Of a stretch of 5,286 nt of DNA, positions 1-5,286 are shown in pieces. A program made the position numbers and the translations under genes. The notes below the pieces were generated by a model, which worked only from the letters and a program-made list of their open reading frames with translations, searched no databases and was not told the origin of the DNA. This DNA is from a virus (lineage: Duplodnaviria > Heunggongvirae > Uroviricota > Caudoviricetes): positions 1-5,286 of the IMG/VR virus record IMGVR_UViG_2744054628_000003. One strand, 5' to 3'. Each line of letters starts with the position of its first letter. The first letter of the stretch is position 1.

Positions 1-473
1 CCTTCTGCGCCCACGCTGAAGTCCACGGTCTGCGTCTCCAGCAGCTCCGTTTTAATCAGCCACAGCCCGGCGCGGTGTGCCTGCCCCCGGCTGGTACAGC
101 CAAAGGCATCCATCTTCGTGACGTTACGACCGTAACGGACAATGGCCTGCGTATCCTCCACAAGCTCTGTCGCCGTCTCCCAGCCGTTATTCGGGTCAAT
201 CCAGTTCACCTCAACGGCATTATGACGGTCCTTCAGGGCGCTGAAGCTGTAGCGGAACGGCGCGCCATCATCCGGCATCACCACATTACTGCGGTTATAG
301 GTCCACACCTTATCCGATGGCCGGTCCTGCACGAACGTCAGCGTCTGCCCGTTCCATACCGGCATACAGCGCATCGCCGAGCAGAAATCACTGAGCACAT
401 CCCACGCCTTGCGCTGCGTGGTCAGGTACGCATTACAGGTGATACGCGGTTCCGTGCCACCAAAGCCATCCGG
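1..473 (-). pseudogene. J: Internal fragment of lambda-type tail tip / host-specificity protein J; 5' part deleted at the V/J joint, 3' part continues beyond the window start
   Basis: Own translation of the minus strand (codons 473-471 downward; absent from the supplied ORF track because it has no ATG and no stop inside the window): [158 protein letters not shown]... I recognise this from memory as the central part of lambda gpJ (very roughly residue 320 onward). Open for 157 codons to the window edge. No in-frame start at the joint, and the frame differs from V'. Confidence 0.85.
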
Positions 474-916
474 CGTCCCACGTTGGTGACTTTCACCGTG
501 CGGGTGATCACTTCCTTCGCCGTCACCGCCTTACCGATACTGCTGACCCAGCCGCGGAACACATCGACCGTGCCGTTCGGGAAGCGGATTTTATAGGCAC
601 GGGTATCCCCTTCATTAAACCACGCCAGCAGCGCCTGCTGCCCCTGCTCTCCGGGCATCCACGCCAGCGTGAAGCTGGTATCTCCGGCAGATTTCTGCCC
701 CTGCCCGGTCGCAGTCCAGTCCGCATCTTCATCATCGAGATAGCTGTCGTCATAGGACTCAGCGGTCAGTTCGCCGGGCGTCAGGTCTTTAACTTTAGCC
801 AGACGCGACCAGTCAACGTCTGAAAGCGGGTTCGCATAAGGGTCACCGCTCCCCTTATAAACCCACAGGGTGGTCCCGGCACCTTTCACCGGCATTACAG
901 GATTTGGTACAGGCAT
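422..916 (-). CDS. V: Truncated major tail (tube) protein V: N-terminal tube domain (~148 aa) followed by a 16-aa out-of-frame tail; C-terminal Ig-like domain missing
   Basis: ORF track 422..946 (-). I prefer the internal start ATG at 916-914 ([36 protein letters not shown]...), which has a GAGGA Shine-Dalgarno at 921-925, 4 nt upstream; the ATGs at 946 and 934 lack one. The sequence through ...[16 protein letters not shown] matches lambda gpV as I remember it. After GR the frame enters J-derived DNA out of frame and reads [16 protein letters not shown] before TGA at 424-422. gpV's C-terminal Ig-like (Big_2) domain is absent. Confidence 0.85.
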
Positions 917-923
917 AGCGTCC

Positions 924-1319
924 TCACATTTCATAGGTAATGACATAAGTCAGATCGGCAGAACTCCACAGGCCCGCATCATCGTCGCGCCGGTAGTCAT
1001 AGCCGCTGGCCACCATACTGGTGATCAAATCTGACAGTGCCGGGATATCGCTCATCACCGGATAAATCCGGGACTCCATCCATGCATCCAGCTCTGAATC
1101 CGGCACCTGAGCAGGCAGGAAAACTTCAATATGCAGCTCCGCCTGCCAGGTATCGCTGTCCAGCTCTTCGCCCGTGTATTCAGCGCCGGTGAGATAAACG
1201 GCAATTGCCGGAAAATCTTCCTCATCAAAAACAGCGGGGCGACCATCAAAAAGCGTCGCCCCGGTGTCATGCTTCTCCAGTGCATCCAGTACGGCTGCAC
1301 GGAGTTCAGTATGTTTCAT
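924..1319 (-). CDS. U: Tail terminator protein U (lambda gpU-like), apparently intact, 131 aa
   Basis: ORF track 924..1319 (-): [131 protein letters not shown], recognised as lambda gpU with full-length size. Its ATG (1319-1317) overlaps the TGA of the upstream ORF (ATGA), and its own TGA (926-924) abuts the V Shine-Dalgarno. Confidence 0.9.
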
Positions 1320-3274
1320 CGCTTTATTACCATTCTCAGTTGATGCTGCAGCGCATAGCCCAGCTCTTTCGGAAGACGTTCACGCCGTATCCGTTCAATA
1401 TTCTGTTTAAACGCCGTGGTCAGCGGCACCGCCATCGGGATTTTCACCACATCAATGGGGTAACGGTTTTTCCCGGCCACACGCTGCATAACATGCCACC
1501 GGCCGTTTTTCAGTTGCTGAATAAACGCGCCGGGAATACGACGGTTACCCACCACAAGCACGCTGCCGCCACCTTTCAGGGATGAACGCTGCCCCTTTTT
1601 ACGACGCCTGCGGCGGGACAGGACAACCCGCGCATTACCCAGCTTGATTACGGGCAAATCCCCCCGGTTAACTTTGATTCTGGCCTGCGGATTTTTGACC
1701 GTGGCCCTTTTCAGCCTGGCCCTTTCCTTTACCAGTTTCCGGCGTACCTTTGTCTCACGGGCAACCTGTGACGCAGACTGCGATATCGCGGATGAAGCAA
1801 CGCGGTTAATGGGGATCACCCGGAACAGCCCATGTTTTTTCGAGCGTTCATACACAATGGTCGGGTCAATCCCGCCAGTATCCCAGCAGATACGGGATAT
1901 CGACATTTCTGCACCATTCCGGCGGGTATAGGTTTTATTGATGGCCTCATCCACACGCAGCAGCGTCTGTTCATCGTCGTGGCGGCCCATAATAATCTGC
2001 CGGTCAATCAGCCAGCTTTCCTCACCCGGCCCCCATCCCCATACGCGCATTTCGTAGCGGTCCAGCTGGGAGTCGATACCGGCGGTCAGGTAAGCCACAC
2101 GGTCAGGAACGGGCGCTGAATAATGCTCTTTCCGCTCTGCCATCACTTCAGCATCCGGACGTTCGCCAATTTTCGCCTCCCACGTCTCACCGAGCGTGGT
2201 GTTTACGAAGGTTTTACGTTTTCCCGTATCCCCTTTCGTTTTCATCCAGTCTTTGACAATCTGCACCCAGGTGGTGAACGGGCTGTACGCTGTCCAGATG
2301 TGAAAGGTCACACTGTCAGGTGGCTCAATCTCTTCACCGGATGACGAAAACCAGAGAATGCCATCACGGGTCCAGATCCCGGTCTTTTCGCAGATATAAC
2401 GGGCATCAGTAAAGTCCAGCTCCTGCTGGCGGATGACGCAGGCATTATGCTCGCAGAGATAAAACACGCTGGAGGGGTCATCCGGCGTCCATTTGAGGCC
2501 AAACGGCGTCTCTTTGTCGCCAAATTTAAGATACTGCTCCTCCCCGCAATGCGGGCAGGCAACATGAAAACGCATAAAATGCGGGGATTCACTGGCTGCA
2601 CGCTCAATCTGACAGGTGCCTCTCACTTTGGGCGTGGAGCCACGGATGGACTTTGGCCAGACCGAGCCTTCAATACGTTTGTCGCCAAGGAACGTCGGAG
2701 AGCCTTCCTGTTCAATATCCTCATCAAAGGCAGCAAGTTCATCATAACCCGCCACATCCACTGACTTTTCACGGTAGTTTTTTGCCGCTTTACCGCCCAG
2801 GCACCAGAAGCCACGACCATTGGAAAAACGCTTCATAGTGAGCGTGTTATCCCGGTGCTTTTTGCCATACCACGGAGCCAGCGCCAGCAGCGACGGAATA
2901 TCGCGGATGGTCGGCTCAACGTGGGTTTTCATAAAGTTCTCGGCATCACCATCCGTCGGCAACCAGATAAGGGTGTTGCGCTGCTTATGCTCTATAAAGT
3001 AGGCATAAACACCCAGCAGCATTTTGGAATAACCGACACGGGCAGACTTCACCACATTCACCTCACGGATGTAGTCGCTGCCCATCGCATTCATGATGGC
3101 CCGCTGAAAGGGCAGTGTTTCCCAGCGCCCTTCCTGGTATGCGGATTCTTTCGGGAGATAGTAATTAGCATCCGCCCATTCAACGGCGGTCTGTGGCTCC
3201 GGCCTGAACAGTGAGCGAAGCCCGGCGCGGACAAAATGCCGCAGCCTGTTAACCTGACTGTTCGATATATTCAC
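1316..3274 (-). CDS. A: In-frame chimeric ORF: terminase large subunit A N-terminal ~489 codons (approx 1808..3274) fused to tail completion protein Z C-terminal ~163 codons (approx 1316..1807); deletion derivative, probably non-functional as a terminase
   Basis: ORF track 1316..3274 (-), 652 aa. Residues 1 to ~489 (MNISNSQVNRLRHFVRAGLRSLFRPEPQTAVEWADANYYLPKESAYQEGRWETLPF...KKHGLFRVIPI) match lambda gpA as I remember it. This part includes a Walker A-like KSARVGYSK (residues 76-84, nt ~3023-3049) and a Walker B-like VDVAGYDE (172-179). The remaining 163 residues (NRVASSAISQSASQVARETKVRRKLVKERARLKRATVKNPQARIKVNRGDLPVIKLGNARVVLSRRRRRKKGQRSSLKGGG...LRMVIKR) are very basic and end in the ATGA-coupled start of U, which is where gene Z lies in lambda. 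Lambda gpA is ~641 aa and gpZ ~192 aa (from memory), so ~150 C-terminal codons of A and ~29 N-terminal codons of Z are missing. The start overlaps the nu1 3' end by 26 nt, as I recall for lambda. Confidence 0.85.
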   Translation of the reverse strand: MNISNSQVNRLRHFVRAGLRSLFRPEPQTAVEWADANYYLPKESAYQEGRWETLPFQRAIMNAMGSDYIREVNVVKSARVGYSKMLLGVYAYFIEHKQRNTLIWLPTDGDAENFMKTHVEPTIRDIPSLLALAPWYGKKHRDNTLTMKRFSNGRGFWCLGGKAAKNYREKSVDVAGYDELAAFDEDIEQEGSPTFLGDKRIEGSVWPKSIRGSTPKVRGTCQIERAASESPHFMRFHVACPHCGEEQYLKFGDKETPFGLKWTPDDPSSVFYLCEHNACVIRQQELDFTDARYICEKTGIWTRDGILWFSSSGEEIEPPDSVTFHIWTAYSPFTTWVQIVKDWMKTKGDTGKRKTFVNTTLGETWEAKIGERPDAEVMAERKEHYSAPVPDRVAYLTAGIDSQLDRYEMRVWGWGPGEESWLIDRQIIMGRHDDEQTLLRVDEAINKTYTRRNGAEMSISRICWDTGGIDPTIVYERSKKHGLFRVIPINRVASSAISQSASQVARETKVRRKLVKERARLKRATVKNPQARIKVNRGDLPVIKLGNARVVLSRRRRRKKGQRSSLKGGGSVLVVGNRRIPGAFIQQLKNGRWHVMQRVAGKNRYPIDVVKIPMAVPLTTAFKQNIERIRRERLPKELGYALQHQLRMVIKR

Positions 3275-3794
3275 TCAGCAACCCCGGTATCAGTTCATCC
3301 AGCGCGGCTGCTTTGTTCATGGCTTTGATGATATCCCGTTTCAGGAAATCAACATGTCGGTTTTCCAGTTCCGGAAAACGCCGCTGCACCGACAGGGGGA
3401 TCCCGTCGAGAATACTGGCAATTTCACCTGCGATCCGCGACAACACGAAAGTACAGAATGCGGTTTCCACCACTTCAGCGGAGTCTCTGGCATTCTTCAG
3501 TTCCTGTGCGTCGGCCTGCGCACGCGTAAGTCGATGGCGTTCGTACTCAATAGTCCCTGGCTGGAGATCTGCCTCGCTGGCCTGCCGCAGTTCTTCAACC
3601 TCCCGGCGCAGCTTTTCGTTCTCAATTTCAGCATCCCTTTCGGCATACCATTTTATGACGGCGGCAGAGTCATAAAGCACCTCATTACCCTTGCCACCGC
3701 CTCGCAGAACGGGCATTCCCTGTTCCTGCCAGTTCTGAATGGTACGGATACTCGCACCGAAAATGTCAGCCAGCTGCTTTTTGTTGACTTCCAT
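3249..3794 (-). CDS. nu1: Terminase small subunit Nu1 (lambda gpNu1-like), intact, 181 aa
   Basis: ORF track 3249..3794 (-): MEVNKKQLADIFGASIRTIQNWQEQGMPVLRGGGKGNEVLYDSAAVIKWYAERDAEIENEKLRREVEELRQ..., recognised as lambda Nu1. It has an N-terminal helix-turn-helix-like segment (KKQLADIFGASIRTIQNWQEQG) and a glycine-rich VLRGGGKGNE segment. It lies immediately next to the cos site with the expected spacing and orientation. Confidence 0.92.
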   Translation of the reverse strand: MEVNKKQLADIFGASIRTIQNWQEQGMPVLRGGGKGNEVLYDSAAVIKWYAERDAEIENEKLRREVEELRQASEADLQPGTIEYERHRLTRAQADAQELKNARDSAEVVETAFCTFVLSRIAGEIASILDGIPLSVQRRFPELENRHVDFLKRDIIKAMNKAAALDELIPGLLSEYIEQSG

Positions 3795-3818
3795 TGTTCA
3801 TTCCACGGACAAAAACAG

Positions 3819-3875
3819 AGAAAGGAAACGACAGAGGCCAAAAAGCTCGCTTTCAGCACCTGTCGTTTCCTTTCT
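3819..3875. repeat. Perfect 16-bp inverted repeat (agaaaggaaacgacag ... ctgtcgtttcctttct), R1/R2-like Nu1 binding elements of cosB
   Basis: 3819-3834 agaaaggaaacgacag is the exact reverse complement of 3860-3875 ctgtcgtttcctttct, with a 25-bp spacer. This corresponds to the inverted R elements of lambda cosB (established knowledge; the R1 versus R2 numbering is not verified). Confidence 0.75.
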
Positions 3876-3915
3876 TTTCAGGGGGTATTTTAAATAAAAA
3901 CATTAAGTTACGACG

Positions 3916-3933
3916 AAGAAGAACGGAAACACC
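3916..3933. repeat. Third R-element-like copy (gaagaagaacggaaacac), R3-like, nearest cosN
   Basis: The core gaacggaaac at 3921-3930 resembles gaaaggaaac of the 3819-3834 element, in the same orientation, about 40 bp from the cohesive end. Confidence 0.6.
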
Positions 3934-3971
3934 TTAAACCGGAAAATTTTCATAAATAGCGAAAACCCGCG

Positions 3972-3983
3972 AGGTCGCCGCCC
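3972..3983. other. cosN cohesive-end sequence (12-nt lambda-type cos overhang), phage genome end-joining / terminase nicking site
   Basis: 3972-3983 aggtcgccgccc is the reverse complement of GGGCGGCGACCT, the 12-nt cohesive end of lambda (established knowledge). The flanks (gcgaggtcgccgccccgtaacctgtcggatcgccggaaagg) match my memory of the joined lambda ends with a few substitutions. Confidence 0.9.
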
Positions 3984-4006
3984 CGTAACCTGTCGGATCG
4001 CCGGAA

Positions 4007-4013
4007 AGGACCC
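4007..4013. other. Approximate position of a cosQ-like element (packaging termination signal) on the genome-right-end side of cosN
   Basis: Placed only by analogy: in lambda, cosQ lies roughly 25-30 bp from the nick site on the right-end side. The sequence here is aggaccc, within ccggaaaggacccgcaaaa. The exact boundaries are not verifiable from sequence alone. Confidence 0.3.
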
Positions 4014-4182
4014 GCAAAATGATAATAATTATCATCTACATGTCACAACGTGCATCTACGCCATCAAACCACGTCAAATAATCAATTATGACGCAGGTAT
4101 CGTATTAATTGATCTGCATCAACTTAACGTAAAAACAACTTCAGACAATACAAATCAGCGACACTGAATACGGGACAACCTC

Positions 4183-4416
4183 ATGTCAACGAAGAACAGA
4201 ACCCGCAGAACAACAACCCGCAACATCCGCTTTCCTAACCAAATGATTGAACAAATTAACATCGCTCTTGATCAAAAAGGGTCCGGGAATTTCTCAGCCT
4301 GGGTCATTGAAGCCTGCCGCCGGAGACTGTGCTCAGAAAAAAGAGTTTCTCCTGAAGCAAACAAAGAAAAGAGTGACATTACTGAATTGCTCAGAAAACA
4401 GATCAGACCAGATTGA
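4183..4416 (+). CDS. Small basic protein with ribbon-helix-helix-like N-terminus (YlcI / DUF3950-like), 77 aa
   Basis: ORF track 4183..4416 (+): MSTKNRTRRTTTRNIRFPNQMIEQINIALDQKGSGNFSAWVIEACRRRLCSEKRVSPEANKEKSDITELLRKQIRPD. The pattern is basic N-terminus, short beta-strand (NIRFP), helix (NQMIEQINIALDQ), G-x-G/S-N turn (KGSGNFS), helix (AWVIEACRRRL), typical of CopG/Arc-type RHH folds. It resembles the small protein encoded next to cos in lambda and DLP12-type prophages (from memory). Weak GGGA 9-10 nt upstream of the ATG. Divergent from nu1. Confidence 0.6.
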   Translation: MSTKNRTRRTTTRNIRFPNQMIEQINIALDQKGSGNFSAWVIEACRRRLCSEKRVSPEANKEKSDITELLRKQIRPD

Positions 4417-4472
4417 AGCAATTTAGATAATCGTGCAGACTACGCCCCTCATATCACATGGAAGGTACTACA

Positions 4473-4883
4473 ATGGCTCAGGTTGCCATTTTTAAACAAA
4501 TATTCGATAAAGTGCGAAATAATTTAAACTATCACTGGTTTTATTCTGAACTAAAACGTCACAATGTCTCACATTACATTTACTATTTAGCCACAGAGAA
4601 TATTCATCTTGTTCTTGAAAACGATAATACGGTTTTAATAAAAGGACAGGGTAAGGTTGTAAATGTAAGATTTTCAAAAAATAAATGCCTTATAGAAGCC
4701 ACCTTAAAAGGATTCAAATCAGGAGAGTTATCATTTTACGAATACAGGAAAAATCTTGCTACAGCAGGGGTTTTCAGATGGATTACAAATATCCACGAAA
4801 ACAAAAGGTATTACTATACCTTTGATAATTCATTACTCTTTACTGAGAACATTCAGAACACTACACAAATATTTCCGCACTAA
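4473..4883 (+). CDS. YbcV-like protein (DUF1398 family), function unknown, ~136 aa
   Basis: ORF track 4458..4883 (+). I prefer the ATG at 4473 ([60 protein letters not shown]...) because GGAAGG at 4460-4465 sits 7 nt upstream of it, whereas the ATG at 4458 has no Shine-Dalgarno. The sequence resembles E. coli prophage protein YbcV as I remember it. The gene is AT-rich relative to the structural genes. Confidence 0.7.
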
Positions 4884-4891
4884 ATCATAAC

Positions 4892-4920
4892 GTCCGGTTT
4901 CTTCCGTGCCAGAACCGGAC
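4892..4920 (+). terminator. Perfect 8-bp stem / 13-nt loop hairpin 9 nt after the ybcV-like stop; possible transcript-end or stability element (no U-tract)
   Basis: gtccggtt (4892-4899) pairs with aaccggac (4913-4920); the loop is tcttccgtgccag. It is not followed by a T-run, so it is not a canonical intrinsic terminator. Confidence 0.25.
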
Positions 4921-5080
4921 TCGCTGGCATGATGAAATATGTGTACCCGGTAACCCCGGTGTGCATCGTTTTTGATTATTCCCCCACACTTGTGCAGAAG
5001 GAGTTCCCCGTCAGGCTACAGTCATAATTAATGCAAGAGTACAGCGACGATACAGCGCACAGAAATAAATCAGGTATCCA

Positions 5081-5108
5081 TTGACTTCACAAAGACGGTG
5101 CATAGCAT
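5081..5108 (+). promoter_or_regulatory. Weak sigma70-like promoter candidate (TTGACT-N16-TAGCAT) reading rightward, away from cos
   Basis: ttgact at 5081-5086 (5/6 match to TTGACA), a 16-nt spacer, then tagcat at 5103-5108 (4/6 match to TATAAT). No long ORF lies downstream within the window. Confidence 0.2.
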
Positions 5109-5153
5109 CGACAGGAGTAATTGCGTAAATTGAACTCTTGGCACACTTTAGCC

Positions 5154-5192
5154 ACCGGCGAATCTTCAGCGGATTATCCTTGGCCGGTTTTT
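5154..5192 (+). terminator. Intrinsic-terminator-like element: GC-rich stem (accggc/gccggt) followed by TTTTT
   Basis: accggc (5154-5159) pairs with gccggt (5183-5188) around a large 23-nt loop, followed by a T-run (5188-5192, ggccggtttttatctg). The stem is short and the loop large, so this is tentative. Confidence 0.3.
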
Positions 5193-5286
5193 ATCTGAGG
5201 CATTGCTCTCGAATGTATAGCTGTGCCCCTTCAAGTTGTTTTTGCATTATTATCAGTCGCGCTCTGAGGGTGAAATAATCCCGTTC

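Follow-up and report, generated by a model that had tools for sequence, protein, structure and literature searches.

The window, by which we mean the whole stretch of 5,286 nucleotides analyzed here (positions 1 to 5,286 of IMG/VR virus record IMGVR_UViG_2744054628_000003), consists of three blocks collinear with phage lambda (J02459) and a non-lambda right end, as revealed by blastn. Window 1-474 corresponds to lambda 16913-16440 in the interior of J (95.1% identity, gap-free), window 465-1812 to lambda 9409-8059 with the 5' part of V, U and the 3' part of Z (97.9%), and window 1806-3983 to lambda 2179-1, comprising the 5' 490 codons of A, Nu1, cosB and cosN (98.9%). E-values are 0 for both flanks of the joint between V and J, which excludes chance similarity. 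Every phage late gene of the window resides on the minus strand, and the order cos-Nu1-A'...'Z-U-V'...'J is collinear with that of lambda at 95-99% identity. Window 3984-5286 contains ynfO- and ydfO-like genes as found in lambdoid prophages of the Qin/DLP12 type. The following features are present:

1-471, minus strand: J' fragment of the tail-tip gene, which starts inside J at codon 313 (P313) and extends to about codon 469, running off the window edge and lacking a start codon
472-474, minus strand: V/J deletion joint, a 3-bp GCC microhomology present in both parents, with zero inserted bases
475-916, minus strand: part derived from the major tail (tube) gene V, codons 1-148, predicted to encode the complete folded N-terminal tube domain
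422-916, minus strand: V' open reading frame in its present form, 148 V codons plus 16 wrong-frame J codons, TGA at 424-422
917-923, minus strand: spacer between U and V, with the Shine-Dalgarno sequence TGAGGA, which extends into the U stop as it does in lambda
924-1319, minus strand: tail terminator gene U, intact, 131 aa, start overlapping the Z stop (ATGA)
1316-3274, minus strand: A::Z in-frame fusion, an open reading frame of 652 aa made up of terminase large subunit codons 1 to about 490 and Z from about codon 29 to the end
1806-1812, minus strand: A/Z deletion joint, 7-bp microhomology CCATTAA
3249-3794, minus strand: Nu1, small terminase subunit, NohA/NohD-like, intact, 181 aa (open reading frame list and lambda match)
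3819-3875: cosB R-site inverted repeat (repeat scan)
3972-3983, minus strand: cosN cohesive-end sequence GGGCGGCGACCT, window 3983 being lambda base 1
4183-4416, plus strand: YnfO/YlcI-like protein (DUF3950), 77 aa
4458-4883, plus strand: YdfO/YbcV-like protein (DUF1398)

The ynfO- and ydfO-like genes run opposite to the late genes and occupy the interval that separates cos from the lysis region. This part of the window shares 99-100% identity with three intact prophages (L004, L008 and L011), and the identity of the ydfO region to Qin from E. coli K-12 amounts to only 72-92%. Next to an intact Nu1 gene, cosN and the cosB R-site inverted repeat are preserved (window 3819-3983), and it is conceivable that the remnant could still be cut and packaged in trans by the terminase of a helper lambdoid phage. 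The U protein represents an extremely common allele with exact matches in the public collection (11,043 blocks); among the matches listed, all lie within intact lambda-like prophages.

The joint between V and J was delimited by a three-way alignment in which the intact prophage of E. coli AR_0017 (L004) served as the parent. Both flanks align with the parent without gaps. Since V can be followed down to window position 472 and J up to 474, the joint is a 3-bp overlap, GCC at 472-474. Read on the phage strand, the parental V sequence is AATGTGGGACGCC before and CGTCGATGGC behind the breakpoint, the parental J sequence is CAGTCAGT before and GCCGGATGGCTTTGG behind it, and the window runs across the joint as AACGTGGGACGCCGGATGGCTTTGG, the joint sequence itself being GGGACGCCGGATGGC. 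V codons start at 475, 472 and so forth and J codons at 473, 470 and so forth, such that the J frame is shifted by -1 relative to V. The DNA absent from the window corresponds to lambda 9399-16441 (7,043 bp), for which the lambda annotation lists V codons 149-246, G, T, H, M, L, K, I and J codons 1-312. The initial annotation, derived from the letters and their open reading frames, had given the string across the joint (gtgggacgcc/ggatggc) correctly and had noted very short homology, which the parent alignment sets at 3 bp. Its list of lost genes, from the Ig-like domain of V through I, matches the lambda annotation of 9399-16441, and the J frame that it had described as uninterrupted from 473 to the window edge is indeed found in the translation of 1-473 on the minus strand. 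It was also right in stating that the N-terminal codons of J have gone, but their number is 312 and not approximately 320.

The remainder of V, residues 1-148, is identical at the protein level to the intact V of prophages L007, L009 and L014 and differs from lambda V in one residue. Both the Shine-Dalgarno sequence (TGAGGA) and the start codon, ATG at 916, match lambda, and the translation of 422-916 on the minus strand gives V residues 1-148, then 16 residues encoded by J DNA and the stop at 424-422. Alignment with lambda and translation therefore agree with the earlier reading of 148 intact V codons behind their own Shine-Dalgarno sequence and ATG, followed by 16 out-of-frame residues and a stop. 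Retention of the tube domain, which had likewise been proposed, is corroborated by a match to Pfam PF16461 (Phage_TTP_12) that covers positions 1-132 of 135 and is essentially complete (E = 1.6e-69). V' also aligns to the gpVN structure PDB 2k4q over residues 1-149. Missing is the C-terminal Ig-like Big_2 domain (residues ~157-246), the DNA for which is deleted and which the same Pfam search places at 161-239 in lambda V. The N-domain of gpV comprises residues 1-156, within which the NMR structure shows disorder at 149-153 (PMC8718954). From its sequence, V' is predicted to be a complete folded tube domain with a foreign tail of 16 residues. As had been expected, this tail is alien to V homologues: it is specified by DNA that is 100% J, read in the wrong frame, and it is absent from 20 of 20 variant V proteins inspected. 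A tail native to some V homologue is therefore rejected. An exact search with the V' protein, allowing for two possible starts, gave no match in an index of 153 billion gene positions.

Translation of V' appears plausible by coupling to U, provided that late transcription enters from outside the window, because the stop codon of Z and the start codon of U share bases, as do the stop codon of U and the Shine-Dalgarno sequence of V. A scan of the window for local promoters yielded chance-level counts (6 promoters versus 5.1 expected), and the same holds true for terminators (5 versus 5.6); with counts so near expectation, a promoter or terminator was rejected as an explanation for V' expression. 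We also rejected a programmed -1 frameshift leading from V' into J', as inspection by eye of the 530-422 overlap did not reveal a slippery heptamer of the X XXY YYZ type. Window 422-916 should accordingly be annotated as a truncated and frameshifted V pseudogene and not as a tail protein.

The J piece equals residues 313-469 of J from strain H9Ecoli (L005) exactly and deviates from lambda J in two residues. Its DNA is 100% identical to gpJ of L005, L016, L017, L021, L022 and L023. The Pfam domain Phage-tail_3 begins at residue 18 of the fragment, which is devoid of a start of its own, of the N-terminal region and of the FNIII-A domain (residues 86-207); the C-terminal receptor-binding domain of gpJ would be situated outside the window. 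Upstream, the J frame is open only to position 530, and neither ATG nor GTG nor TTG occurs in it between 530 and 473. The first candidate starts further downstream, GTG 398, ATG 374 and ATG 365, are not preceded by a recognizable ribosome-binding site. Judging from these features, the remaining 3' two-thirds of J can be regarded as a dead fragment whose start codon is missing, and window 1-471 should be annotated as a J pseudogene fragment rather than as a tail protein. The same 474-bp J segment occurs with 100% identity at three chromosomal sites in prophages with unrelated head modules, namely at the Qin site (L005, L016, L023), on the ompT side (L021, L022) and at ssrA (L017). This J allele provides an example of free movement among lambdoid prophages.

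A second joint, A::Z, is located 1.3 kb upstream of V::J. Here, lambda 2180-8059 is missing, that is W, B, C, Nu3, D, E, FI, FII and the 5' end of Z. In the resulting open reading frame, Pfam recognizes GpA_ATPase, a truncated GpA_nuclease (2-178 of 294) and Minor_tail_Z (24-190 of 190). The identical joint is present in the metagenome contig OIXH01010756.1 (L018, 2681-2711), where an exact 31-mer runs across it, and it was found in 0 of 5,426 complete E. coli genomes. An exact look-up of the A::Z protein returned nothing. As the same joint is carried by this contig, with flanks 1-3% different from ours, and by no complete E. coli genome, A::Z is either old and has persisted while its flanks recombined later, or it is recurrent.

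With this second joint in the window, the element appears as a decayed lambdoid prophage, more precisely as a remnant of a lambda-type prophage with two internal deletion joints, A::Z and V::J, in a genome that would belong to an E. coli-type host. The window itself contains neither a host gene nor an att site. Head genes, the tape measure gene and genes for tail-tip assembly are no longer present in the element. By its gene content it should be unable to make particles, and V' should not be capable of building a tail: with G, GT, H, M, L, K and I missing and J not intact, tail initiation would fail.

We consider the V/J joint to be a pseudogenizing deletion joint in a defective lambda-type prophage that arose by a single illegitimate intra-prophage deletion, and assign this reading a probability of roughly 0.88. 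The starting point would have been a prophage with the normal order cos-Nu1-A-...-Z-U-V-G-T-H-M-L-K-I-J, from which approximately 7.04 kb would have been lost between V codon 148/149 and J codon 312/313 in one illegitimate recombination event. This would have left V as tube domain 1-148 plus 16 nonsense residues and J without a start, and between them A::Z and V::J would have stripped the element of every head gene, the tail chaperones, the tape measure and the genes for tip assembly. The two flanks have the same orientation and stand in the expected order when compared with lambda. One deletion within one prophage is sufficient because the exact J allele already occurs together with lambda-type V-U-Z (97.8%) in the normal arrangement in L021 and L022.

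The closest relatives of the two flanks are not the same, and this could be taken to mean that two distinct lambdoid elements were joined here, for example a resident prophage with the J allele and an incoming or second prophage with the V allele. The V-U-Z flank is up to 99-100% identical to L009, in which J is only ~96% identical, and other lambda-type prophages matching V-U-Z at this level likewise have a J of only 95-97%. The J flank is 100% identical to L005 and L021, the V genes of which show 65% and 97.8% identity, respectively; among the prophages with 100% identity in J, those with HK97-like heads (L005, L016, L017 and L023, at the Qin and ssrA sites) have V genes with only ~65% identity. 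However, lambdoid phages are mosaics, and L021 and L022 already combine both alleles in normal order. Moreover, V lies upstream of J on the same strand, exactly as laid out by a simple deletion, and an exchange between chromosomal prophages would in addition delete or invert the host DNA between them. We therefore regard an origin from two elements as unlikely and infer a single event in one prophage.

Regarding the mechanism, the list of open reading frames and a repeat scan revealed no IS end, target duplication, filler DNA, transposase gene or terminal repeats at or near the joint. A deletion mediated by an IS element or an integrase was rejected on these grounds. Illegitimate deletions with short homology in E. 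coli are attributed to slipped mispairing between short repeats and to microhomology end joining, as known from studies on lacI deletions and alternative end joining. The deletion described here resembles these events in its kilobase scale, in ends that share few bases and in the absence of filler and of a mobile-element signature. It differs from typical cases in that the 3 bp shared at V::J are at the low end and close to chance, since an overlap of at least 3 bp is expected for 5.8% of random joints in lambda DNA; the 7 bp at A::Z are expected for 0.08%. Being only weakly above chance, the 3-bp overlap does not pin down how V::J arose. The joint is illegitimate and independent of homology and says little further about mechanism, and the 7-bp overlap at A::Z points to short-repeat slippage or microhomology-assisted joining. 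For V::J, replication slippage or template switching would fit, as would a break followed by microhomology-assisted end joining; RecA-dependent recombination, a site-specific recombinase or an IS element would fit poorly.

An exact direct repeat of 12 nucleotides, CATCCGGCGTCC, is present at window 467-478, i.e. across the V/J joint, and at 2479-2490 in gene A. About one exact pair of 12-mers is expected by chance per 5.3 kb, and the chance that one falls exactly across the joint is roughly 0.3-0.6%. A role of this repeat as a bridging template was considered and dismissed as a coincidence, given that filler DNA is absent and about one pair is expected anyway.

In megablast searches for the V/J joint, neither 5,426 complete E. 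coli genomes nor 50,697 phage records contained a place matching 80% or more of the query, and exact as well as degenerate patterns of the joint were absent from GTDB species genomes, metagenome contigs and viral contigs. At the same time, a protein search with V' uncovered public V fusions of several kinds (V::Lom, V::L, V::G, V::Stf and V::H) along with frameshifted V genes, and analogous single deletions are found in other E. coli prophages, namely A'::'E (L019), B'::'FII (L020) and V::Stf (L002, L018). The type of event is commonplace and the exact V/J joint is new to the collections searched. The main uncertainty is that this joint is known from one sequence, and its uniqueness in all collections searched would be in line with an artefact of assembly or sequencing, a chimera made from parts of one intact prophage or of two prophages. 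The J segment is repeated in E. coli genomes (median 3 copies, maximum 14), which renders assembly difficult. Still, assemblers join sequences at long shared k-mers and not at 3 bp, and a repeat common to both sides of the joint does not exist. The neighbouring A::Z joint has been recovered independently in metagenome contig L018, indicating a real decayed prophage, and comparable joints are common in finished genomes. An artefact appears very unlikely to us.

Several named elements are related to the decayed prophage described here. The cryptic prophage Qin of E. coli, in the less decayed form found in strain B-JRPT-4119 (L002), resembles the window in featuring ydfO-ynfO, cos, Nu1/nohA, A'::'Z, U and a V that breaks off close to the domain boundary and continues into a downstream tail gene. 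V of L002 extends to lambda 9425 and is fused in frame to stfQ, yielding the 663-aa protein WP_001301021.1; only three genomes carry this joint. The breakpoints differ between L002 and the window both in A (lambda 1647 versus 2179) and in V (9425 versus 9398), and the fusion partner is stf, joined in frame, in the former and J, joined out of frame, in the latter. Although the A::Z joint of L002 (7342-7346) has its A breakpoint at lambda 1647 and not at 2179, its entry into Z is within 1-2 bp of that in the window (~lambda 8058); A::Z in L002 may be a secondary deletion from a joint of the window type or may reflect a preferred endpoint in Z. Qin of K-12 (L024) is a further deletion derivative of the L002 form. 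The window shares only 92.9% identity with K-12 Qin over the region from Nu1 to ydfO and 95.3% with L002, and it is 99.3-99.4% identical to the intact prophages L004, L008 and L011. The Qin site of K-12 is presumably the one between ydfJ and rspB. With respect to this site, the right part of the window matches L004, which adjoins rspB, at 99.3%, and the J allele of the window is found there (L005, L016, L023) as well as at the ompT-side and ssrA sites.

The metagenome contig OIXH01010756.1 (L018) resembles the window in the same A (lambda 2179)::Z (8059) joint and in a truncated V behind it, which is fused out of frame to a downstream tail gene. It differs by an additional in-frame Z::U deletion, which joins lambda 8515 to 8873, by a V that is cut earlier, at lambda 9341 (~residue 129), by stf instead of J as the partner and by the 1-3% divergence of its flanks. 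Prophages at the Qin site vary from 11 to 97 kb in 189 strains, and grounded prophages are prone to deletion (PMC6379469).

V' invites comparison with C-terminal truncation mutants of lambda gpV, the product of which is likewise a tube domain without the Ig-like domain. Unlike these mutants, V' resides in a prophage without G, GT, H, M, L, K, I and an intact J, and it carries 16 additional foreign residues. Removal of the Ig-like C-domain of V lowers lambda activity about 100-fold, and tails still form (PMC8718954). The latter finding could speak for the short V as a natural or retained functional variant under selection, for instance as a poison subunit acting against superinfecting lambdoid phages. 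The whole folded domain is kept without any amino-acid change from intact alleles, the Shine-Dalgarno sequence and the coupling to an intact U are preserved, and most of the N-domain has also been kept at two other decayed loci, L002 (residues 1-157) and L018 (only ~1-129). Yet the tail is encoded by out-of-frame J DNA and not by a native C-terminus, K-12 Qin lacks V altogether, and the scan for promoters and terminators remained at chance level. Identity with intact alleles is explained equally well by a recent deletion. Breakpoints in public V variants are scattered over residues ~126-195, and we take the clustering behind the N-domain as an ascertainment effect. We accord a V variant retained under selection barely any probability. 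In a more specific scenario, the orphan tube-domain V would be kept, expressed from the late operon upon infection or induction of a lambdoid phage, and would co-assemble as an Ig-less, tail-tagged poison subunit that lowers infectivity, which we deem exceedingly unlikely. If it applied, retention of the V N-domain in several decayed prophages would reflect selection, or else a deletion hot spot at the interdomain linker of V. To return to the single intra-prophage deletion, V' would probably be functionless.

V::J is a case of ordinary prophage decay, a private illegitimate deletion of about 7 kb. It is of little importance beyond annotation, and the element should be classed as the remnant of a prophage that is no longer inducible. 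Biological interest would arise only if the orphan tube domain were expressed and interfered with incoming lambdoid phages. The V/J joint represents a private marker that is usable for strain typing and lineage tracing and, alongside L002, L018 and K-12 Qin, exemplifies the stepwise and independent erosion of one type of prophage.

The positions of the breaks in V at lambda 9398 (window), 9425 (L002) and 9341 (L018) looked suggestive of a deletion hot spot. We judged this to be an ascertainment effect, since the survey of variants yielded the scatter over residues ~126-195 mentioned above and the search favours those that keep the N-domain. Within this range, several independent truncations or fusions of V among public E. 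coli proteins (P0003, P0004, P0008, P0009, P0016; L002 ~5985-6001) break at V residues 157-162 (...EDRSTVTA), where a linker connects the tube domain with the Ig-like domain. This cluster could be due to a local hot spot for deletions and frameshifts or to a survivorship effect; the V breakpoint in the window, 148/149, is located just outside of it.
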